From: Mustelus asterias
Lineage: Eukaryota
Assembly (NCBI RefSeq): GCF_964213995.1
Contig: NC_135808.1
Coordinates: 6,138,001 to 6,202,000 of the forward strand
Direction: 5' to 3'
Length of the DNA stretch: 64,000 bases
Shown here: piece after piece, positions 11,901 to 41,705 of the stretch
How the letters are laid out: every line of letters starts with the position of its first letter
Position numbering within the stretch: position 1 is the first letter of the stretch
Made by a program: the position numbers and the translations under genes
The notes under the pieces: model-generated
What the model saw: only the letters and a program-made list of their open reading frames with translations
Databases searched by the model: none
Told to the model about the DNA's origin: nothing

Positions 11901-14900
11901 TTCTTCAAAGGAATCACGTGTGTTGTGAATAAATGGGAACTGCACTTAGTTTCCCAGAAAGCATTTAATAATTTGCCAGATCAAAAGATATTCCATCAAA
12001 TAAATGCTCATGGTGCAGAGGGTGACATATTGGCATAGAAAGAAGATTGGCTAATGAACTGGAATGGAGAGTTGACATAAATGGGTCATTTTGTGTTTGG
12101 CAGGATGTGATGAGTTGTGTGGTCGAGGTGTCAGTGCTGAGGCCTCAACCATTTACAATTTATATAAATGACTTTGATGAAGTATAGAACGTTGGTTCAG
12201 CCGCATTTGGAATACTGCGTCCAGTTCTGGTCACCACACTACCAGAAGGACGTGGAGGCTTTGGAGAGAGTACAGAGGAGGTTTACCAGGATGTTGCCTG
12301 GTATGGAGGGGCTTGGTTATGAGGAGAGATTGGGGAAACTGGGGTTGTTCTCCTTGGAAAGACGGAGGATGAGGGGAGACTTAATAGAGGTGTATAAAAT
12401 TATGAAAGGCATAGATAGGGTGAACGGTGGGAAGCTTTTCCCCGGGTCGGTGGTGACGTTCACGAGGGGTCATAGGTTCAAGGTGAAGGGGGGGAGGTTT
12501 AACACAGATATCAGAAGGACATATTTCACACAGAGGGTCGTGGGGGCCTGGAATGTGTTGCCGGGCAAGGTGGTGGAGGCGGACACACTGGGAACGTTTA
12601 AGACTTATCTAGACAGCTATATGAACGGAGTGGGAATGGAGGGATACAAAAGAGTGGTCTAGTTTGGACCAGGGAGCGGCGCGGGCTAATTGTTCCTGGT
12701 TTCTCGTTTCAAGGCTTCATTCTATGATCATCTTGCTGGTGCCAGTACAGAGTGAGACTGCGGATAGTTGGGAACCTGTCTCGGGGGCAGGGAATTCATA
12801 TGGTGTTCGTGGAAGTGGAAATGACTAGGGTTGGGAAGCATTTTCCGATCGGGGCCATTGTGATCTCCTGGACTCGTTTCGATCGCCTCAGGGGGTCGGA
12901 GAGGAATTTCCCAGATTTTTTTTCCCCATATTGGCCCTGGGGTTTTTCACTCTGGGTTTTCGCCTCTCCCTGGAGATCACATGGTCTGGAATGGGGGGGT
13001 GGGGGTAAGTTAATAGGTTGTAATGAACAAAGCATCGTAGCTGTGAGGGACAGCTCGGTGGATAGGATATTGGTATGTAGATAGGCTGGAAAATTGGGCG
13101 GGGATCCTGGATTCAGGATTCAATCCTGGACCGGGGAGCGGCGCGGGCTTGGAGGGCCGAAGGGCCTGTTCCTGTGCTGTATTGTTCTTTGTTCTTTGTT
13201 TGTTCTTTGAAGGGACTGAAGGTATGGTTGCTAAATTTGATGACAACACAGATAGTTAGGAAAGTACATCGTGAAGACGATGTAAGGAGGCTACATGGGA
13301 CTATATATAGATTAAGTGAGTGGGGAAATCTCGAGCAAATGGATCATAATCTGTGCAAGTGTGAAGTTATCCAGTTTGGCAGGAAGAATAATAAAAAGCT
13401 TATAATCTAAATTGTCAGAAATTGCAAAGCTCTGACATGCAGAGGGACCTGGCTGTCCCAGTGTATGATTAAAAAAGGCGAGTATGCAGGCACAGCAAGT
13501 AACTAGGAAAGCTAATAGAATGTTATCATTTATTGTTAAGGAAATTTATTACAAAAGTGGGAGGTTATGCTTCAGTTGTACAGGGCATTGGTCAGACCGC
13601 ATCTGAGTATTGTGTACACTACTAGTCTTCCTATTGGGGAACGATTCCGATGCTTTAGAAGCAGTTCAGAGAAGCCTACCAGACTAATATCTGGAATGGA
13701 GAGGTTGTTTTAAAAGTTTGCAGAAGTTAGGGTTGTATCCACTAGTGTTTCGAAGAGTCAGAGACAACTTTATGGAAACATTTAAGACCTGAGGAGTCTT
13801 GACAGAGTGAGTGTTGAGTGAATGAGGTGAGGTGAGAACACATTTCTTCACCCATGGAATTAATTACAACAGGAAGTAGTTGATGCCAAAACATTGAATA
13901 TATTCAATAAGCAACTAGATGTAGCACATGGGGCGAATGGGATCAAAGCTTATGGGGAGAAAGCAGGATTAGGCTATTGAGTTGGACGTCAGCCATGATC
14001 GTAATGAATGGTGGAGCAGGCTCGAAGGGCCAAATGGCCTCCTCCTGCTCCTATCTTCTATGTTTCTATGAATGTTGAGCCTGGAAATGGAGGGGGGAGG
14101 GTCACTGTTTACAATACAAGTCTCTCATTTATGACAGAGATAGGTGGGGGGGGAAGACATTTCCCTCAGAGTGTCGTGAGTCACTGCAATTCTCTTCTCC
14201 AAAAGACAGTGGACGCAAAGATGTTGAATATTTTTATGTCGGAGTGATGTAGATTATTGATTAACGGGGAGGTTGGTGATGGGGGGCGGTGGGATGAAAT
14301 GTTATCGCGGAGAGTCATGAATATGGGGTTCAAGTTAAAATCAGATCAGCCATGATCTTATTCAATGACGCAGCAGGCTTGATGGGCTGAATGGCCTACC
14401 CTGCTCCTATTTCATATCTTCGTATGTTCATGAGACGTATTTAAACAAAGCCCCAAATCATTCTCACGAATTCCCTTCAGGACAATATTGTCGTCGGCTT
14501 GTCCAGAGATCTGAGATGTTGAGAATGTGCTCATTGATCCAAGTTGAGGAGGTGAGAGAAGGGAAATGAGGGGATTTGTCACAGTGGTTAGGGGTGTGTG
14601 ATGAAGGAGTGAATACAGTGAGTGGGGGGTATGTGGGTAGTGGTGAATGCAGTGGGTGTGTGGGGAGGGGTGAGTGCATTGGGTGCGTGTGACAGAGGAG
14701 GTGGTGAATGTAGTGGATGAGGGTACGTGGAGAGAGTTGAATGCAGTGGGTGGATATATGTGTGGAGGGGGTGAATGCAGTGGGTGGGGATGGGTGGGGA
14801 CGTGTGGGGCGTGGAAAATGTAGTGGGTGGGGATCTGTGGTGAGGGGGTGAATGCAATGAGTAGGGATAAGTGTGTGGAGGTGGTGAATGCAGTGGGTGG

Positions 14901-29885: not shown

Positions 29886-30880
29886 GGATATCTAAAAAAA
29901 AATCAGTATTTTTTTCACGTGTCTTCTGAGTTTGACTGTGACAGTATTTGTCCCACATCATCTTATCAGGCACCCTCTGCAAATGAACAGTCTCGAAACA
30001 ATGGAAGACTGTCTCAGTTCCAGTGCTAGGTTTCAGTTATAGTTCTGAATTTATCTCTTGAGTCAACATAACACAGATACCATGTGCTGCAGTAACGGGT
30101 AGTTATAAGTATCTGTACTGCAGCACATAACCTAAACTGAAGGCATCGGGCTGGTCTCAAGTTGCCTTTGGATGCTGAGAAATAAAATCAATGCAAGTCA
30201 CTCGTTCTTTATTTTCTAGCAAATGAAATGGAACTTCGGACTTCCCTTCCCTCTGAAGGTTTTATGTGTATGATGTGATGTACTTCCCTAAAGTAAACCA
30301 GTGACTGAATCTTATACTTACTGCCTGGTCCATAAAGGGCTTTGGGTCGTCCCAGAGTGGTGATAGGCGCTATATAAATGCAAATGTTTCTCTCTTTAGA
30401 TCGAACCCAGAGGTTCAATCCCTCCAAAATAAAATCTGTACCAGTCATCTGAAAAGTCTCCTTCATCTTTATAAGTGTTTTGTGCTGTATTTGTGAACAC
30501 AATTCAGTTTCTAGGCTTCGCTCTCGCACCGAGTTTCATCAGAGTGGTTTTAATCAACAGCAAGTCCAGACTGGAGAAAAATGGAATGGAATCTCGATCC
30601 CGCCCATCTCCATCTTTTCCCTCTCTCCGCACTGTCAACATTCCGTGAAGCTCTACCCGCCCCGACCGGATTCAGTCATTCTTCTGCGTGATATAAAATC
30701 GTTCCCACTTCATACCTTGCTAGGTTTTACATTCCGGTGCGAGGCAACGAAATGCACCCTTGGTTATAATAACATTTCTCTACATATTGCAGTGAATTCT
30801 GTCGCGAAATCGTGAAACAGGTGTTCGACAGCGCAGTTCCAAGTAAACTCCGGTTGAATCAAGAAGTGCTGATCGTGAAC

Positions 30881-31291
30881 ATGGCTTCCAGAGAGCTTTT
30901 CAAGAGTATAAGCGAAGATGCAATTTGTCCGAGTTGTCTTGATTTCTTCAATGATCCGGTTACACTGGAGTGTGGACACAGCTTCTGCCGCTCCTGTATC
31001 ACTCAGTGTTGGGAAAAGAAAGACGTATTCGCTTGCCCGCAATGTAGAGAGGAGTTTCCAGAAAGAAACTTGAGGGTAAACGGGGCCCTGGCGAATCTAT
31101 CCGAGAAGACACGAAACTTAACCGTCAACTGGAAAGAGAAGGAAAGTAAACTTCACTGTGAGGAACATCAGGCAGAACTAAAGTTGTTTTGTGAAACTGA
31201 CAAGAAATTGATCTGTTACACTTGTAGAGATTCGCTGGAACACAAATCCCATAACTTCATGGCGATTAAAGAAGCTGTTGAACTCTACAGG
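30881..31291 (+). CDS. TRIM gene 2 coding exon 1 (RING + B-box)
   Basis: [19 protein letters not shown]...EAVELYR then AGG|GTAAAC donor. Confidence 0.92.
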
Positions 31292-34200
31292 GTAAACGGG
31301 AAATGTATTTTCAGCTGATTACCTAATCACATTTTCATGGTTTAATACTTTAATTCTGTGATTTTCTCTCCCAATCCCAGGAGCAGCTGAAATCTACATT
31401 AGAATCTCTAACAGAAAAGAAATGGGCGATGCGAGAAAAGGAACTGAAACAGAAACTGAAGATTTCTGAAGTCAGGGTAAGGTCTCCCTGTGCTGATTTT
31501 CTGGGATCTCGGTTAGTTTTGTTCCCTTTCTCGCGGGACATTAATCATGTTTCACATTTCATTGGGTAGGAACAGTCGAGCAGTCTGCAGACCCACATCA
31601 CATCCGAGTTCACTAAAATGCATCAGATTCTCACTGAGAAAGAGCAGCGTTTACTCAGGGATCTCAGGGAAGAAGAGGGGTGGATTCTAGAATCAATGGA
31701 GGAAAACCTTCGAGAGATTCAGCGGAATTTGAATCATATTAAAGAGAGACTCTCAAAGTTTCACGAGCAGATGGAGCAAAAAGATGAATTGAAATTTCTG
31801 AAGGTAAGGGAATATATTGCAATTCAGCAAAACTTCACACTGAGAGAATATTTGATGATAACGAAAATAATGCAGCTTTTGATGGAGAATTCTATGTGAT
31901 TAAAATCGATTGTTTTGTCTATTTCGGGGAAGTTCAGTTGTTGTCACACAACTAGCCAACTTCCTCGTTTCTACAGAATCCTGAGAATAACTGCAAATTT
32001 TCTGGATTAAATTGTCATGATCTAGGCTCATGTAATTTAAATTCCTTGTTGCACAAGTTTAATCATCGCCTGGGACACTTTACATTGCTTCCACATTCCA
32101 AATGCACACCCAATTCCCTATTGAAATTGATTATGGAGCCAACTTCCTTCTCTATGTCATGGATCACATTCCAGACCATTGGTGCTTAATAATCTTCCTT
32201 TGTCAATTATGTTAAAGTGTTGTGTAGGTCATGCCCCAGGGCTCCTTATTTCTACATACCTTTAAAACTGTCTCACGTCACAATCTGCATAAAATTGTAT
32301 CCAACCTGTGTCTGTCCATTTCACCAGCCAAAGAACATCAACTCATGATCTATTTTATCCCATGTCTGGTTATATCGTCCTGAAGCCTGTTACTATACTT
32401 CACATTGGGTTTTTTTTATTTCAGGAAGAAGTTTGTCAGAAGAAAAGGTAGGAAATGCCCTTTACTGAAATTCTGCAGCCTTGTTAAAATAACCCAGAAA
32501 AGTGTTTATGATGTAGTTATTACAGCAACTGTTTAATACGTACAGGATTATTGAGGAGGAAGACCTGATCTCAGTACCAGATGTTTCCTTATCTGTTTGG
32601 AGGTTCCGTGGTCCTTTACAATACATAGCCTGGAGAGAAATGATAAACTCCATTAATTCAGGTAAAACTCTTTTTTTTCTTGGTTTATAAATCTAGATGG
32701 GAGTTGTCTAAACCGGCTCCCGGACTCGAGATTAATTTATCACTAATAACCGTGACTAGCCACAAATTCAAAAATTTTAGAAATAGACAAGGGAAAACGT
32801 GTGGTGTTATAGAACATAGAACATAGAACAGTACAGCACAGAACAGGCCCTTCGGCCCACGATGTTGTGCCGAGCTTTATCTGAAACCAAGATCAAGCTA
32901 TCCCACTCCCTATCATCCTGGTGTGCTCCATGTGCCTATCCAATAACCGCTTAAATGTTTCTAAAGTGTCTGACTCCACTATCACTGCAGGCAGTCCATT
33001 CCACACCCCAACCACTCTCTGCATAAAGAACCTACCTCTGATATCCGTCCTGTATCTCCCACCACGAACCCTATAGTTATGCCCCCTTGTAATAGCTCCA
33101 TCCACCCGAGGAAATAGTCTTTGAACGTTCACTCTATCTATCCCCTTCATCATTTTATACACCTCTATTAAGTCTCCCCTCAGCCTCCTCCGCTCCAGAG
33201 AGAACAGCCCTAGCTCCCTCAACCTTTCCTCATATGACCTACCCTCCAAACCAGGCAGCATCTTGGTAAATCTCCTCTGCACTCTTTCCAGCGCTTCCAC
33301 ATCCTTCTTATAGTGAGGTGACCAGAACTGCACACAATATTCCAAACCGGTTATTGAATTAAACAAGATCCCAAACTGATAAGATAGGATTAACAACGTA
33401 AATGTTTATTGGGGGTCACATAACAGGGTACCGAAAATCCCAAAGTTAGTAATTGGAGAGTGCAAATACAGTTGAGAGAGAATGAGGTTGAGTTTTTGAG
33501 AAACCTCATTTTCGGACATCCAGTGAGCCCACTGTTCACCACAGAAATTTGGGCAGAGGCCCAATCCATTCTCAGAATTGGACTTCAGTACAATGATGCT
33601 GACAATTTGTCCAGGTGAGGGCAGCAGAGCGCTGAAGGTGATTGGTGGTTGCAGGTCATATTTGCATAGGTGCAGTCACTGCGACCAGAAGGTGGGTTTC
33701 TGGAAGAGACCTTCCTACTGCGAGTGAAGGCATGTGTCCAGGTGAGGGCAGCAGAGTGGTGAAGGTGATTGCAGGTCACATTTGCATAGGTGCAGTCACT
33801 GCGACCAGAAGGTGGTTTGTGGAGGAGCTGCTGTTAAGCGACAGTTAAACCCCAAACACTACTTTAGTGTTTCCTTCCCTTGTCCTGTAACCAAACAAAA
33901 GTTGGTCTGCGGCCTTTTGGCTAAGATCAAGTGTAATATGGACAGGATGCTGCGCTTGGTTGAGGTCATTAGGTTACATTTAAGGTTCATGTTCATATGA
34001 AGCAAGTTTTAAAAGCAGCATCTCAGCCTTTTGGCTAAGATGCAAATGAGATCCAGCCTTGGAGGAGGAACCCTGCCCCTCCTCCAATCAGCTGGGCTCA
34101 TGTAGATCAGGCCCAAGACAGGTGTGAAGGCCCTGTCTTGTCAGCCTGGATTGGAAATGTCTCAACTTGTTGAGACTCTGAATTGGACTTGATTTGATTG

Positions 34201-37200
34201 AATTGGAAAAGTATTTTTAAAAAGTTGGTCCGCGACCGAAAAAAAATGTCGGTCGGCCTTTTGGCTAAGATCAAGTGTATCTGTTCTTCTTGGCCTTTTG
34301 GCTAAGATCAACTGTAGTGTCAACATGCTGTGCTTGGTTGAAGTCATTAGGTTACATTTTATCTTCATTTAAAGCAATTTTTTTAAGTGGCAGCTCGGCC
34401 TTTTGGCTAAGATGCAAATGAGATCAAGCTTTGGAGGAGGAGGTATTCCTACTCCAATCAGCTTGGATCATGTAGATCAAGCCCAAGACAGGAGGTGAGA
34501 GCCCTGTCTTGTCAGCTTGGATCGGGAATGTCTCAGCTTGTTGAGACTCTGAATTGGACTTGATTTGATTGAATTGGAATAAAAATACAAACAAAAGTCG
34601 GCAGGAGGACCACAAGCAAAGGAGAGGTGAGTTGCAATTCTTTTGTCCTTTTACCTGGAGAAGGGCAATATGGCAGCTAGGGCAGTGGCATGCTCCTCCT
34701 GCCAGACGTGGGCAATTAGAGAGCAATCTAGTCTCCCTGACAACTTTGTCTGCAGGACGTGTGTCCAGTTGCAGTTCCTCACAGACCGCATTGTTCGGTT
34801 GGAGCGGCAGGTGGATGCACCGCGGAGCATACAGGAGGCAGAGAGTGTGATAGACACTAGTTACAGGGAGGTTGTCACACCACAGGTTAAGACAGGTAGA
34901 CGGGTGACCACCAGAAGAGGCAGGCAAGTAGTGCAGGAGTCTCCTGTGGCCATTCCCCTTTCAACAGGTATACTGTTTTGGATGCTGTTAAGGGGGATAG
35001 CCTGTCAGGGGGAGATACCAGCAGCAGCCAGGCCTATGACAACACAGCTGGGTCTGCTGTGGGACAGGGTTGGGAAAAGAGCAAGCGAGCAGTAGTAATA
35101 GGGGACTCACTAGTTAGAGGCACAGACAGACGTTTCTGTGGCCACAATCGAGACTCTAGGATGGTGTGTTGCCTCCCTGGTGCCAGGGTCAAGGACGTCT
35201 CTGAGCGATTGCAGGACATTCTTAAGGGGGAGGGGGAGCAGCCAGAGGTCGTTGTACATTTTGGTACCAATGACATAGGTAGGAAAAGGGATGAGGTCCT
35301 GAAATGTGAATGTATAGAGTTAGGCAGAAGGCTAACGTGCAGGACCTCGAAGGTAGTAATTTCAGGACTACTACCAGTGCCATGTGCTAGTGAGCGTAGG
35401 AGTAGGAGGATTAGGCAGATGAATGCCTGGCTTGAGAGCTGGTGCAGGGGGCAGGGATTTAGATTTTTGGATCATTGGGATCTTTTCTGGGGAAGGTCTG
35501 ACCTGTTCAAGAGGGATGGGTTACATTTGAACTGGAGGGGGAACTAACATCCTGGCGGGGAGATTTGCTAGAGCCACTCAGGAGGATTTAAACTAATTTG
35601 GCAAGGGGGTGGGTTCCAAAGCAGTAGGGAGACAGAAGAGAAGTTTGAGGACAGCACAGAAGTTAAACAGAGCACATTAAGTAGTAAAGGCAGTGTCAGT
35701 AATCCTAGTACCAGACACATCAGGCAAAAGCAAGACAGAGAGCAAGGGAAGTCCAGATTAAACTGCATTTATTTCAATGCAAGAGGCCTGACAGGCAAGA
35801 CAGATGAACTCAGGGCATAGATGGGTACGTGGGACTGGGATATTATTAGCAATTACTGAAACATGGCTAAGGGAGGGTCAGGACTGGCAGCTCAATGTTC
35901 CAGGGTACAGATGCTATAGGAAAGATAGAACAGGAGGTAAGAGAGAAGGGGGAGTTGCACTTTTGATTAGGGAAAGCATACGGCTGTACTGAGAGGGGAT
36001 ATATCCAAGGGTTCGACCACTGAATCTATACGGGTAGAACTGAGAAATAAGAAGGGGGAAATCACTTTGATAGGTTGTACTATAGGCCCCCAAATAGTCG
36101 GCGGGAAATTGAGGAGCAAATATGTAAGGAGATTACAGATAGCTCCAAGAAAAATAGGGTGGTAATAGTCGGAGATTTTAATTTTCCCAACATTGACTGG
36201 GACAGCCATAGTATTAGAGGGTTGGATGGAGAGAAATTTGTTGAGTGTATTCAGGAGGAATTTTTCATTCAGTATGTGGATGGCCCAACTACAGAGGGGG
36301 AAAAACATGACCTCCTCTTGGGAAATAAGGAAGGGCAGGTGACAGAAGTGTTAGTGAGCATCACTTTGCGACCAGTGACCATAAATTCTATTAGTTTTAA
36401 GATAGCTATGGAAAATGATAGGTCTGGCCCAAAAGTTAAAATTCTAAATTGGGGCAAGGCCAATTTTGATGGTATCAGGCAAGAACTTTCAAATGTTAAT
36501 TGGGAGAGTCTGTGGGAAGGCAAAGGGACATCTGGTAAGTGGCACGCTTTCAAAAGTGTGTTAACCAGGGTTCAGGGTAAATACATTCCCCTTAGAGTGA
36601 AGGGCAAGGCTGGCAGAAGTCGGAAACCCTGGATGACTCGGGATATTGAGGCCCTGGTCACGAAGAAGAAAGAGGCACATGACATGCATAGACAGCTGGG
36701 ATCAAATGAATCCCTTGAAGAGTATAGAGGGTGTAGGAGTAGAGTTAAGAGAGAAATCAGGAGGGCAAAAAGGGGACACAAGATTGTTTTGGCAGATAAG
36801 GCAAAGGAGAATCCAAAGAGCTTCTACAAATACATAAAGGGCAAAAGAGTAACAAGGGAGAGAGTAGGGCCTCTTAAGGGTCAACAAGGTCATCTATGTG
36901 CGGATCCACAAGAGATGGGTGAGATCCTAAATGAGTATTTCTCATCAGTATTTATTGTTGAGAGAAGCATGGATGTTAGGGAACTTGGGGAAATAAATAG
37001 TGATGCCTTGAGGAGTGTACATATTACAGAGAAGGAGGTGCTGGAAGTCTTAAAGCGCATCAAGGTAGATAATTCCCGGGACCTGGTGAAGTGTATCTCA
37101 GGAAGTTGTGGGAGGCTAGGGAGGAAATTGCGGTCCCCTAGCCGAGATATTTGAATCATCGATAGTCATGGGTGAGGTGCCTGAAGATTGGAGAGTGGCA

Positions 37201-40200
37201 AATGTTGTGCCTTCGTTTAAAAAGGGCTGCAGGGAAAAGCCTGGGAACTACAGGCCAGTGAGCCTCACTTCTGTGGTGGGTAAATTGTTGGAAGGTGTTT
37301 TGAGAGACAGGATTTACAGGCATTTAGAGGCGCAAGGACTGATTAGGGACAGTCAGCATGGCTTTGTGAGTGGAAAATCATGTCTCACAAATTTAATTGA
37401 GTTTTTTGAAGGGGTAACCAAGAAGGTAGATGAGGGCAATGCAGTTGATGTTGTCTACATGGACTTTAGCAAGGCCTTTGACAAGGTACCGCATGATAGG
37501 TTGTTGCATAAAGTTAAATCTCGCGGGATCCAGGGAGAGGTGTCTAAATGGGTACAAAATTGGCTTCTTGACAGAAGCCAGAGAGTGGTTGTAGAGAGTT
37601 GTTTTTCAAACTGGAGGCTTGTGACCAGCGGTGTGCCTCAGGGGTCAGTGCTGGGCCCACTGTTATTTGTCATTTATATTAATGATTTGGATGAGAATAT
37701 AGGAGGCATGGTTAGTAAGTTTGCAGATGACGCCAAGATTGGTGGCATAGTGGACAGTGAATAAAGTTATCTCCAATTGCAATGGGATCTTGATCAATTG
37801 CGCCAGTGGGCTGATGAATGGCAGATGGAATTTAATTTAGACAAATGCGAGGTGATGCATTTTGGTAGATTGAACCAGGGCAGGACTTACTCAGTTAATG
37901 GTAGGGCGTTGGAGAGAGTTACAGAACAAAGAGATCTAGGGGTACATGTTCAAAGTGCCTTGAAAATGGAGTCACAGGTGGACAGAGTGGTGAAGAAGGC
38001 ATTCGGCATGCTTGATTTCATCAGTCAGAACATTGAATACAGAAGTTGGAACGTCTTGTTGAAGTTGTACAAGACATTGGTAAGGCCACACTTGGAATAC
38101 TGTGTGCAATTCTGGTCACCCTCTTATAGAAAGGATATTATTAAACTAGAAAGAGTGCAGAAAATATTTACTAGGATGCTCCCTGGACTTGATGAATTGA
38201 GTTATAAGGAGAGGCTGGATAGACTGTGACTTTTTTCTCTGGAGCGTAGGAGGCTAAGGGGTGACCTTATAGAGGTCTATAAAATAATGAGGGGCATAGA
38301 TAAGGTAGATAGTCAATATATTTTCCCAATATTTTCCTAAAACTAGAGGGCATAGGTTTAAGGTGAGAGTGGAGAGATACAAAAGTGTCCAAAGGGGCAA
38401 TTCTTTCACACAGAGAGTGGTAAGTGTCTGGAACAAGCTGCCAGAGGTAGTAGTAGAGGTGGGTATAATTTTATCTTTTAAAAAGCATTTAGACAGTTAC
38501 ATGGGTAAGATCGGTATAGAGGGATATGGGCCAAATGCGGGCAATTGGGATTAGCTTAGGGGTTTCAAATAAAAAAGGGCAGCATGGACAAGTTGGGCCG
38601 AAGGGCCTGTTTCCATGCTGTAAACATCCATGACTCTATGACATCTGGAGCATTGAGCTTGTGCTCAATGATGCATGATGGAGGAAGTCAGAGAAAAGTA
38701 ATGAGGAGATTTGTCCCCGGGTACAATTGTTAGGAGCTATTTAAAATGTGTGAGTGCAGGTTATGTTGGGGGTGCGGGCGAAGGCGTGAATTCAGCGATT
38801 GTGGGTGTGTGAGGAGGGGGTAAATGCAGTGGGTGTGGGAGGGGGGGGTTGTGGAAAGTTGAGGAGCAGACAGCAGCATGCTGGATAATTCTTGCAGCCG
38901 CCTGGACACAAACGGTTAGAAAAGAGAAAATAAAACAAATAACTTTGCATTACAATGGCGCATTTCACACCAAATGATGTCCCAAAGCATTAAACAACTA
39001 ATGAATTGTTAACTAAATCTATTAAATGCGACAATGTAGGAAACACAACCGTCAATCTATGTACATGTACGATAACAACCAGACCCCCTGTTTTTGTGAT
39101 GTTGTTTGTGTGATAATTCGTGACTAGGGCACTCACCATCACTCATTTCATCCTCGGATATCACCCATTTTTTCTGAGGTATTGTGTGCAGTTCTAACTA
39201 TCACATTGCAGGAAGGACACAATTGCTCTGGAGAGAGATTTACTAGAATGCTGTAAGGGGTAGAAAAGTGCAGCTACGAGGAAATATTGGATCGATTATG
39301 TTTTTTTTTCCCTTGAAACAGAAAAGCTGTGAGGTGACTAGATTGAGGTCTACAAAATTATGAGCGGCACAGTACCACAGTGGTTAGCACTGCTAACTCA
39401 CAGTGCCAGGGACCCGGGTTCAATTCCGGCCTCGGTTCATGTATGTGCAGTTTGCACATTCTCCCACGTCTGCGTGGGTTTCCTCCGGGTGCTCTGGTTT
39501 CCTCCCACAGTCCAAAGATGTGTGGGTTAGGTTGATTGGCCAGGCTAAATTGACCTTAGTGTCAGGGGATTAGCAGGGTTAATATGTGAGGTTACCAGAA
39601 GAGGGCCTGGGTGGGATTGTGGTCAGTGCAGACTCGATGGGCAGGATGGCCTCCTTCTGCACTGTAGGATTCTATGATGAGGGGAAGAGATAGAAGGAAA
39701 AGGATTTTTAAAAATTTCCCTTGGTGGAGAATTCTAGAAAAAGGGGACATAGATTCAAGATAAGCGAGAGAAGGTGTAGAAGGGACAGGAGGAATAATTT
39801 TTTTTATACAGAGGGTGGTGTGTGTCTGGAATTCGCTGCCCAAGGTGGTGGTGAAGGCAGGGACCCAAAACTCTTTTTAAAAGTACCTGGATCAGGATGA
39901 TCCGGAGTTGTGATGAATTGAAATGTTGGATCTATTCACTCTCCATAGATGTTGTCAGACATGCTGAGACTTCCCAGCATTTTCTGTTTTTGTTTCAGAT
40001 CCCAGCATCCACAGTATTTTGCTTTTATCCACGATTTCCTCCCTGGTTTCTTTCAGAATTCTGGGGTATATTTCATCCAGCCCTGAGGATTTATCCACTT
40101 TCAAGAATGCTGCTCCCCTTACTGCTGCCTACCTCCCTCTGTTTATCATATCCAGTGCTTCTCACCCTCCTCGTTACTGAACAGCATGTCTGTTTTGTGC

Positions 40201-41705
40201 CCCTCCTTTTCGAAGATGATGCAAAGAATTCATTATGAACCCCATCTAAAATGTGTGTCTCATATAGGCCACCTTCTTGCCTTTCATGGATCCTAATCTT
40301 TCATGTTGCACCTAATGTGTTGATAAAACATCTTTGGGTTTCTCTAGACTTTCTTGCCAAAGTTTTTTTTCATGCCTTCTCTTTGATTTACTGATTTCCT
40401 TTCACTTTCTAGACTCCTCTCAGCATTTTGCAGTATTGCGTTTTCTGTGTCTGATATAAGCAAATAGCTCTCTGAAGTTGTTAACTTCTCCCTCTCCCCA
40501 CCTCAATACCACTCATTAGTGACAGTCTGGTCATGACTCCAGGCAGTGATTACAGAATAAAATGTATCCGGGTAGTAAAACAGCATGCGTGACAGAAAAT
40601 CAGTAGTTCATTTTACATTATACACTCAAGGCCTCACACTCTTTTACCTCTATCCTTCCAGCATTCCCTCCCGTTCCCCACTGCACACACTTCCACTTTC
40701 CCAAGTACTCTACCACCCCTACATGTGCCCTCCATGTTAATATCTACTGTAACTTTCCCTAATCTCCCTCCAAACCCTTACTTTCCTCTTCCACTCCTTG
40801 CTCACATTTCCCTTCCCGCAACAGACTCTTACCTGCACCATCCTCATTACACATACACAGTCTCCCTGAGACCACAGTGCATTCCTCTTCCTTGTGCGCC
40901 CTCTTTTGCAGACTGTGCATTCCTACCCTCCATAAACACAGCGCTACTCTCTTCAATTGTTTCCATTGATTTTCTTGCCCATATCTTTCGACACACAGGA
41001 TGCAAACTTTCAAATGGCAGTAAATTCCATGTTTAAAACCAACAACTTCAGTTAGAACTGTAAAAAGTAAACTGTTCAAATAAATCAGTAAGAAACTAAA
41101 TCACTGACTGTTTTTTTTGTAACTTTCCCCCAGCTCCAGCTTCTCTGACTCTGGATCCCAACACAGCGAACCCCTGGCTCATCCTGTCCGAGGACCGGAC
41201 CAGTGTGAGACTGGGAGACAAACAGCAGCTGCTCCCTGACACCCCGGAGAGATTTGATATCTGGGGCTGTGTCCTGGGATCGGAGGGTTTCACATCAGGG
41301 AGAAATTACTGGGAGGTGAAGGTGGGGAATAAGACTTGGTGGGGTCTGGGAGTGGCCCAAGAGTCTGCTGAGAGGAAAAAGAGAATAAATCGGAAACCTG
41401 AAAGTGGATATTGGATTGTGTGGCTGGATCCACAAAGAGGTTACTTCGCTGGAACCTCTCCTTCATCAACACCATTCATCCCGACTGCGAATCCCAGGAA
41501 AATCGGGATTTACTTGGACTATGAGCGTGGACAGCTGTCATTTTACAATGCGGACAACATGTCCCATCTCCACACTTTCACCCACACTTTCACTGAGAGA
41601 GTGTTTCCAATCTTCAGTCCAGGGTCGAATGATGGCGGGAAAAATACTGCACCACTGACAATCTGTGCAACTGAAGATTACAAACGGATCCATCCCATAA
41701 TTTGA
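30881..41705 (+). CDS. TRIM gene 2: RING-B-box-coiled-coil-PRY/SPRY paralog, 6 coding exons, 483 aa
   Basis: Exons 30881-31291, 31381-31476, 31570-31803, 32425-32447, 32546-32661, 41134-41705 (411/96/234/23/116/572 nt). GT-AG introns, open frame, zinc ligands intact. Confidence 0.93.
32812..33345 (-). mobile_element. Young 5'-truncated CR1
   Basis: ORF 32893-33396 [30 protein letters not shown].. uninterrupted; (TTCTATG)n tail. Confidence 0.9.
33609..33820 (+). repeat. ~120-bp tandem repeat (2 units) at the CR1 5' end, each with an ATTTGCAT octamer
   Basis: GTCCAGGTGAGGGCAGCAGAG...GCAGGTCA(T/C)ATTTGCATAGGTGCAGTCACTGCGACCAGAAGGTGG occurs twice; octamers at 33660 and 33780. Confidence 0.85.
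33910..34419 (+). repeat. Array of five U2 snRNA 5'-end fragments inside a ~372-bp tandem duplication in the CR1 5' UTR
   Basis: GCCTTTTGGCTAAGAT core in copies starting at 33910, 34021, 34253, 34287 and 34394 matches U2 stem I; 33910-33935 equals U2 nt 10-35 exactly. No Sm site or 3' half, so not a U2 gene. Confidence 0.88.
39365..39680 (+). mobile_element. HE1-type V-SINE inside a CR1 fragment (39160-39890)
   Basis: Full head, V-domain and tail; CR1 frame (IEVYKIM|RGRDR) on both sides. Confidence 0.88.
41134..41705 (+). CDS. TRIM gene 2 terminal exon (PRY/SPRY)
   Basis: Acceptor TTTCCCCCAG|[32 protein letters not shown]..., stop TGA ending 41705. Confidence 0.92.

Follow-up and report, generated by a model that had tools for sequence, protein, structure and literature searches.

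Retroposons headed by U1 or U2 small nuclear RNA sequence (SINEU-1, -2 and -3) are known from crocodilians; the study describing them found them in no other group and left their transcription open (Kojima, 2015, PMC4494074). Two kinds of LINE enter U2 genes at the same site: Keno, a U2-specific Tx1 LINE with an apurinic-type endonuclease (PMC6136364; PMC4640811), and Utopia, which is autonomous, carries a restriction-like endonuclease and inserts in tandem in U2 genes (PMC4640811). R2 SIDEs, in 28S rRNA genes, are passengers in a multicopy RNA gene, are co-transcribed with it and keep 5′ host sequence that can pair with the target; they are internal LINE deletions with a ribozyme, confined to rDNA (PMC3414825; PMC3774820).

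The window analyzed here, a 64,000-nt stretch of the genome of the shark Mustelus asterias (NC_135808.1, positions 6,138,001 to 6,202,000, forward strand), holds two copies of a U2-headed unit that is best read as SINEU-like in kind, the comparison with SINEU-1, -2 and -3 being drawn from their published description. Going by PMC4494074, the two share an snRNA-derived head, a length below 500 bp, an A-tail, repeated 5′ U2 additions, internal T-runs, tandem copies sandwiching a target duplication, one preferred site within another transposon and, in Tx1-Mar, a Tx1 partner LINE with an snRNA head. They differ in that the shark partner still targets the U2 site, units are seated inside U2 genes, some dispersed copies have brought U2-array spacer along, a predicted anti-U2 fold-back follows the head, and the hot-spot host is a CR1 5′ UTR instead of Mariner-N4. 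The shark partner shares with Keno the endonuclease type and the 3′ U2 flank, as far as these sources describe them, but is relaxed, with most copies outside U2, and has a U2 head and a non-autonomous passenger. Unlike the SIDEs, the shark unit is no visible deletion product of its Tx1 and occupies thousands of dispersed sites; 5′ and 3′ ends in common with the partner LINE, as in R2 SIDE-like deletion derivatives, were not found. A literature search whose scope left out most subscription papers and Repbase Reports returned no such family in cartilaginous fishes.

Two U2-headed units in one CR1 copy

An earlier note on this DNA had reported five sense U2 motifs, and all five were recovered as exact 16-nt matches at 33912, 34026, 34256, 34293 and 34398 (0.04 expected). 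They lie, as described there, between the 5′ end of a CR1 element and its ORF1 ATG (34670), all 3′ of the CR1 5′ monomers. Their placement inside the CR1 insertion also held: a paralogous intron without the CR1 joins both flanks at 14506, which places the CR1 copy at about 33612–38642. The features are as follows, with U2 positions from alignment to this genome's own U2 gene.

14425–14685, + strand: paralogous intron without the CR1, flanks joining at 14506
33605–33818, + strand: pair of ~120-bp CR1 5′ monomers; octamer motifs in reverse orientation at 33660 and 33780, one per monomer
33612–38642, + strand: host CR1-type LINE copy, full length, with broken frames; ends from the paralogous empty intron
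33893–33905, + strand: target duplication, left copy, in the A-rich hot spot of the CR1 5′ UTR; matches the empty site in other CR1 copies
33906–34223, + strand: unit A, a U2-headed non-autonomous element, 5′-clipped, with an A-rich tail at its end; solo copies elsewhere are 95–97% identical
33906–33939, + strand: U2 head of unit A (U2 nt 7–39), with one private change in the branch-point hexamer
33947–33978, + strand: anti-U2 segment; by prediction it pairs back with the unit A head in one long hairpin
34018–34048, + strand: unit A, internal copy of U2 stem I (U2 nt 4–33), then an octamer-like 8-mer (34040–34047)
34219–34252, + strand: two further copies resembling the target duplication (the second and third), separated by a short inverted piece
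34253–34288, + strand: U2 fragment (nt 9–47, 3-nt gap) added 5′ of unit B
34286–34590, + strand: unit B, the same element but of an older subfamily; head 34286–34321 (U2 nt 5–40), internal U2 copy 34394–34420 (U2 nt 8–33)
34587–34601, + strand: target duplication, right copy, where the CR1 5′ UTR resumes
34670–35547, + strand: CR1 ORF1, frameshifted, with a GDSL esterase domain in 34900–35547

The five motifs are two element copies, units A and B, plus one added U2 fragment. That fragment likely arose by a template switch onto U2 snRNA, and similar 5′ U2 additions occur at five other loci (L014, L026, L322, L324 and L338). The CR1 copy, whose esterase, endonuclease and RT domains stand in separate frames, is a mere landing site for U2-headed elements. 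Rfam found U2 alone in 33898–34480, weak matches to U6 and CRISPR (E 1.2 and 1.9) being chance.

The ~372-bp tandem duplication proposed earlier did not survive comparison: its halves are 84% alike, have closer relatives elsewhere (97% and 95–96%) and are both separated and flanked by short target duplications, observations that together exclude duplication within the window. Several of the 95–97% solo relatives of unit A carry target duplications; unit B is 95–96% identical to copies elsewhere and belongs to the older subfamily by tree position. The branch-point hexamer is indeed altered or absent in all five window motifs, but 102 of the 152 heads scored retain it unaltered, which rules out its selected loss as a family trait; two of the five motifs are internal U2 copies, which have other sequence at the hexamer in 156/161 units. 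The predicted hairpin of the unit A head (z = −3.35) was equaled in stability by none of 200 shuffles, and the same helix appears in the family fold.

The retroposon family and its probable Tx1-type partner

The U2-headed unit is a free-standing non-autonomous retroposon with thousands of genomic copies: an internal 25-mer had 4,844 exact matches in the genome and its reversed control none. Other CR1 copies do lack the array, which goes part of the way to the refutation that the earlier note had set for its leading idea. Copies also occur alone, several with target duplications of their own, and the note's second suggestion, that a non-autonomous element with a U2 head or a U2 target was carried within the CR1, proved apt on both counts. 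A complete unit of ~320 nt consists of a head of U2 nt 1–39, a hairpin body in which U2 stem I occurs a second time, an A-tail and target duplications (7–23 nt at 47 of 89 sites scored); 165 near-full copies could be aligned and form a subfamily ladder. In 123/147 units the head ends at U2 nt 37–40, the Keno/Utopia site as given in the consulted parts of PMC6136364 and PMC4640811.

The hallmarks of a classical Pol III SINE (tRNA, 5S or 7SL head, internal promoter) were not found, and T-runs lie within the head and body; the U2 snRNA-derived head, and a family of many short, non-coding, A-tailed copies with a body of their own, are those of SINEU. Predicted RNA folds of the unit had z-scores of −4.2 to −8.8. 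Against the life cycle proposed below, the antisense strands give stable folds too (z −4.6 to −6.7), and a common two-sided change was seen in one pair only. It also counts against that model that unit and Tx1 align just in the U2 head and over about 10 nt of tail, with no clear similarity in the rest of the body; derivation of the body from U2-array spacer or from Tx1 was rejected, there being no real alignment.

The candidate partner is a LINE in which Pfam identified a ZCCHC3-type ORF1, AP endonuclease, RT and zf-RVT domains; it has a Tx1-type ORF2, an architecture that, with the ZCCHC3-type ORF1, we take to be the mark of Tx1. Its head is U2 nt 1–35, it shares its U2 seat with the unit, and its 5′ end is likewise predicted to fold back on its own head, with sequence unrelated to that of the unit. 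The LINE uses the Keno site (about U2 nt 37/38 to 38/39, with the 3′ flank stated for Keno) and lacks the strict U2 specificity of Keno: none of the 30 best 3′ ends was followed by the full U2 flank, and exact A-tail/U2 joins number only 28 genome-wide against 953 candidates. Homologue searches returned no named Keno among the matches. By site and domains, it is best read as a relaxed Keno-type LINE. Tx1 3′ ends are 97–99% alike, both unit and Tx1 being young, and a unit follows within 30 nt of 7/29 Tx1 3′ ends (by chance, about 1e-4 or less). On the indirect grounds applied to SINEU in PMC4494074, shared targets and head, the unit would count as mobilized by this LINE. Detailed translation or mapping of three array Tx1 copies showed broken frames or rearrangement in each, which counts against this reading.

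A proposed life cycle through U2 genes

In two U2 arrays, C24 (locus L288) and C21 (L296), which contain full U2 genes (181.5 and 175.5 bits), units sit between U2 nt 1–39 and U2 nt 38 onward, and they are 96–98% like young dispersed copies. Among 19 matches to C21-type U2 upstream sequence off the C21 array, nine lay before a unit and two before Tx1 sequence (11/19). At locus L293, a 17-nt duplication encloses 1.7 kb of U2 array in which three units lie, and four unit-derived matches there exceed the Rfam cut-off; here and at L325, U2 sequence lies on both sides of a unit. Gaps in a 1,833-bp U2 array, considered as hidden insertions, were altered U2 copies.

We consider it probable from these comparisons that the ~320-nt retroposon, also seated at U2 nt 38/39 in U2 genes, is transcribed from the U2 promoter and moved by the U2-headed Keno-type Tx1. 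A copy at the Keno site directly behind U2 nt 1–38 would be transcribed into an RNA of U2 head plus body, in which the first ~35 nt of the body are predicted to pair with the head and cover it. The A-tail would serve the Tx1 ORF2 protein for priming at nicks, throughout the genome, that loosely resemble U2, and on re-entry into a U2 gene the head would match the left flank and rebuild a source copy. Used sites, and one A-rich site in the CR1 5′ UTR, would be struck repeatedly, giving tandem trains as in the window. Two observations count against U2 genes as the source: the arrays examined now hold only two unit-bearing U2 genes, their units all of one young subfamily and one of these units damaged, as against 31 representatives under 93% identity, and C24-type upstream sequence was found at 0/53 matches off C24. 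The spacer-plus-head joins could also have arisen by template switching onto read-through U2 RNA.

More tentatively, we suggest as a possible extension that this is a promoter-less SINE whose whole cycle runs via U2 genes: it would borrow the U2 promoter and the first 38 bases of U2, which its own antisense hairpin would hide, the same bases serving as the re-entry handle that rebuilds source copies; the antisense hairpin would have evolved separately in the Tx1 helper, and dispersed heads would act as landing pads drawing later insertions to the same nick.

It is unlikely, in our judgment, that the unit, still as a passenger of this Tx1, owes the transcription of its dispersed copies to an internal Pol II promoter (octamer plus CCAAT-like motifs) or to promoters in the flanks, for example in the CR1 5′ UTR, with most U2 seats leading nowhere and template switches to U2 snRNA renewing the heads. 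The octamer-like 8-mer is kept in 156/161 units, but it partly coincides with the stem by which the internal U2 hairpin is lengthened. The many subfamilies against few array seats, the additional U2 fragments 5′ of several copies and the position of the CR1 hot spot, 3′ of the CR1's own 5′ monomers, fit such transcription; the clustering of head ends at the Keno site, where variation would be expected, the U2 sequence flanking units at L293 and L325, and the presence of the window's 5′ junction in 0/22 other filled CR1 copies do not. Mobilization by a different LINE (another Tx1 or an L1 family), with common sites owing to similar endonucleases, appears quite improbable: unit and Tx1 have no long 3′ tail in common, and other Tx1-like 3′ ends occur at U2 (L259, L287 and L291), but the same U2 seat, the same head, mixed trains with shared duplications and the youth of both elements speak for the U2-headed Tx1.

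Re-used insertion sites

Units and Tx1 pile up in tandem at common sites, in mixed trains with shared duplications. The target consensus amounts to about 2.5 bits over 44 sites (three sites with the nick inside another element were dropped) and no long U2-like consensus was found; the strong re-use of sites goes beyond what the nick sequence can explain. Tethering by octamers was unsupported, with 2 octamers in 35 kb of near flanks and 14 in 70 kb of far flanks at 91 unit loci. Among Tx1 3′ flanks, three octamers occurred within 2/22. The order of ages within trains (22 to 8 by tree depth, 18 to 13 by neighbor distance) was counted against the model. That the trains arose by tandem duplication of DNA, as an incipient satellite, and not by repeated insertion is very improbable; an 8,035-bp U2-Tx1 repeat did amplify as DNA, and in the C2 train two neighbors differ by 3.5% and have the same unusual head, but most neighbors belong to different subfamilies (6–16% apart in 28/31 pairs), the duplications between them are of unequal length, and Tx1 pieces are mixed in.

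In the CR1 5′ UTRs sampled, 47 of 54 distinct copies are empty at the insertion site, at least 22 other CR1 copies are filled there, and the U2 array is not a feature of full-length copies of the CR1 family. The earlier note's leading idea, a working 5′ UTR module built from U2 sequence captured by the CR1, draws on these filled copies and on some clustering of them on the CR1 tree (2/500 shuffles as low), but retains next to no credence, being already largely refuted by the empty sites, by rejection of the filled copies as one clade (AU p = 3e-11; 10 changes needed on the tree) and by 5′ junctions and unit subfamilies that differ among copies, at a site also used by Tx1 and a tRNA-type SINE.

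The thousands of U2 look-alikes so produced are open to mis-annotation as U2 genes, and the partner shows a Keno-type LINE in a state intermediate between strict U2 targeting and spread throughout the genome. For snRNA-headed SINEs more broadly, the shark family likely offers a candidate answer to how they are transcribed, left open in PMC4494074: it is young, has copies behind U2 promoters that are candidate sources, and shows transduced array DNA at dispersed copies, and the question of SINEU transcription is therefore now directly testable.

U2-derived insertions in a CR1 element

A 16-nt motif from the 5' end of U2 occurs five times in the window, exactly and in sense orientation (at 33912, 34026, 34256, 34293 and 34398), against 0.04 in shuffled sequences, and Rfam returned two U2 matches across 33898–34480, both sub-threshold. 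The motifs are enclosed by a CR1-type LINE at ~33612–38642, whose ends could be fixed because a paralogous intron is empty at 14506. Its frames are broken across the ORF1 esterase, endonuclease and reverse transcriptase (RT) domains; the closest named relatives of a LINE protein from the genome include proteins of rays and sharks. Open frames at 30773–31318 and 41100–41705 resemble exons of a TRIM gene (RING/B-box and PRY-SPRY, respectively), an intron of which would then contain the CR1. On contig C72 (10.801–10.804 Mb, L076), a ~120-bp CR1 5' monomer stands in ~19 tandem copies. The U2-derived block in the window reads, 5' to 3':

duplication
33906..34223, unit A, a ~320-nt U2-headed non-autonomous element
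duplication-like pieces
fragment of U2 nt 9–47
34286..34590, unit B, of an older subfamily
duplication

Searches with CR1 sequence from both sides of this block yielded 54 distinct copies whose 3' side could be scored, one further locus being left unscored: 47 were empty, two held a unit, two the 3' end of Tx1 (a U2-headed, Keno-type LINE) and two other sequence, and one was the window itself. A junction-spanning search, with 40 copies scored, added 22 other filled copies. The 5' junctions and unit subfamilies of filled copies are not alike. A tree was built from 16 filled and 39 empty copies, without eight short rows and six filled copies having interrupted CR1 sequence. It requires 10 changes of the filled/empty label, and a test rejects a single clade of filled copies (p-AU 3e-11); the tree is poorly resolved and shows mild clustering of the filled copies. 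The U2 pieces are not part of CR1. The earlier note had offered two readings, a CR1 5' UTR built from a captured U2 module or a U2-headed or U2-targeting non-autonomous element inside the CR1. The first fails on the empty copies and the rejected clade; the second was borne out, the unit being both U2-headed and U2-targeting. Because CR1 copies are mostly empty and the filled ones differ in junction and subfamily and do not form one clade, the A-rich CR1 site is an insertion hot spot. L043 and L013 show two relations to a tRNA-type SINE (typed by eye): one of its ends lies at the same CR1 hot spot, and its tail has received two units.

The unit, its predicted fold and its probable Tx1 helper

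Solo units elsewhere share 95–97% identity with unit A, and an internal 25-mer has at least 4,844 exact matches (a lower bound) in the 3.68-Gb Mustelus asterias genome, its reversed control having none. Of 89 unit sites, 47 have target duplications of 7–23 nt, and a ladder of subfamilies emerges from 165 near-full copies. The unit is almost certainly a retroposon separate from CR1. From 5' to 3' it starts with a U2 head, to which the next segment is predicted to pair; after a hairpin and an AU-rich single strand come another copy of U2 stem I with an octamer-like 8-mer behind it (in 156/161 units), four more hairpins and an A-tail. The first base of the head is U2 nt 1 in 28/145 copies and nt 2–14 in the remainder; the last is nt 37–40 in 123/147, and the branch-point hexamer is intact in 102/152 heads. 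At the unit-like L252 and L253 (C1:112.24 Mb) the internal U2 copy continues as true U2 to ~nt 93 before other sequence follows, a possible hint at its origin.

Predicted folds of five natural copies reached z-scores of −4.2 to −8.8, and their reverse strands −4.6 to −6.7. Common variant pair types keep pairing in 22/28 cases vs. 56% expected for transitions (p = 0.012), weak evidence because the copies are related and the structure derives from the same alignment; paired columns vary less (0.044 vs. 0.131). For unit A, the predicted partner of the head is the 35 nt that follow it (z −3.35), and the window's unit B prefers U2 stem I. In all six Tx1 5' ends folded, the head pairs with the following sequence, which is unrelated to that of the unit; such a fold-back likely serves to mask the U2 head. 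Between two hairpins, an A-U-rich single strand (33990–34020 in unit A) is strongly conserved across all subfamilies; it occupies an Sm-site-like position and lacks the G that follows the U-run in Sm sites.

A second A-tailed 3' end, met at the CR1 hot spot and beside units, belongs to the Tx1. Full-length Tx1 (~5.3 kb) encodes a ZCCHC3-type ORF1 and an ORF2 with endonuclease, RT and zinc finger, which we take to be Tx1 architecture, and begins with U2 nt 1–35; such heads have 45 matches genome-wide, 17 of them on C24. A unit lies ≤30 nt downstream of 7/29 other Tx1 3' ends (chance ~3e-5 to 8e-5). In mixed trains L151, L169 and L178 the upstream Tx1's duplication contains the first bases of the unit head, so Tx1 inserted second, at the same nick; duplication lengths at L189 suggest that a later insertion occurred downstream. 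This Tx1 is very probably the unit's helper. At L259 (C24:41.74 Mb), L287 and L291, U2 sequence lies beside 3' ends belonging to another, more distant Tx1-like family; the genome may contain two or more U2-associated families.

The nick consensus (~2.5 bits, agreeing with the U2 site only from −3 to +1) is too weak to yield the 18 tandem units among the first 94 25-mer matches on C1, a seven-unit train or the ~4% occupancy of the CR1 site. The upstream train member is deeper in the subfamily ladder in 22/30 untied pairs (p = 0.016), pairs within a train being non-independent and some trains coming from a biased search; neighbour distance (18 to 13) does not support this trend. Tethering of insertions by the octamer was not supported.

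Units in U2 genes and the probable source of their transcription

Real U2 genes lie in three arrays:

C24, 1,833-bp array
C24, 8,035-bp array
C21, ~448-bp array

In the C24 gene at L288, the upstream region and U2 1–39 are followed by a unit (middle damaged), a duplication, a truncated Tx1, a duplication, a unit and the remaining U2; the C21 gene at L296 holds a single unit seated likewise inside U2. These array-seated units belong to one young subfamily and are 96–98% like dispersed copies. A stretch at ~−62 to −43 in both array types resembles the vertebrate snRNA proximal element, for which it is a candidate. All three arrays show A-tails and then U2 from nt 38/39 onward, the flank described for Keno in the excerpted text of PMC6136364 and for Utopia in that of PMC4640811.

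Other array features were also seen. At C24:43.018–43.059 Mb (L282–L285), short tandem head copies replace the bases directly after the Keno site in 9/21 viewed U2 repeats, and may be scars left by failed insertion, or alleles that lack the target and are spreading through the array. The ~8,035-bp repeat (C24:44.815–44.936 Mb; L286, L301–L315), amplified 16 times, pairs an intact U2 gene with a U2 copy that lacks a promoter and contains a full-length Tx1; the single Tx1 copy translated has broken frames. At C21:28.045–28.085 Mb (L317–L320), Tx1 has interrupted the ~448-bp array, of a second U2 type, at least six times, and several inversions break it as well.

The C21-type spacer end joined to U2 nt 1 has 19 matches, eight on C21 and 11 elsewhere; nine of the latter precede a unit (two on C14 being one locus, and two having identical flanks) and two precede Tx1 sequence. 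Units carrying this spacer belong to several subfamilies. At L293, a 1.7-kb U2-array piece with three units ends in the A-tail of one of them and is flanked by a 17-nt duplication, from which we infer retrotransposed read-through RNA of a unit-bearing array. C24-type upstream sequence was found off C24 in 0/53 matches, which counts against the C24 array as a demonstrated source; read-through capture may be rarer there, given its 1.8-kb period. The U2 promoter is probably the unit's main transcription source.

Relation to SINEU

A search of the published literature found no report of this unit family. Judged against the published description, the unit is a SINEU by kind. According to the consulted parts of Kojima (2015; PMC4494074), SINEU begin with snRNA sequence, stand in tandem on either side of a duplication, gain extra U2 pieces and have Tx1 partners that are themselves snRNA-headed. 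None are reported there from outside crocodilians, and their transcription is called an open question, flanking promoters being suggested. The unit resembles R2 SIDEs in its way of working but, as far as excerpts of PMC3414825 and PMC3774820 describe these, unlike them is not its helper's deletion product. Relative to crocodilian SINEU, this family is new in its lineage, in having a helper whose insertions still reach U2, in occupying U2 genes behind their upstream regions, and in its transduced spacer and fold-back.
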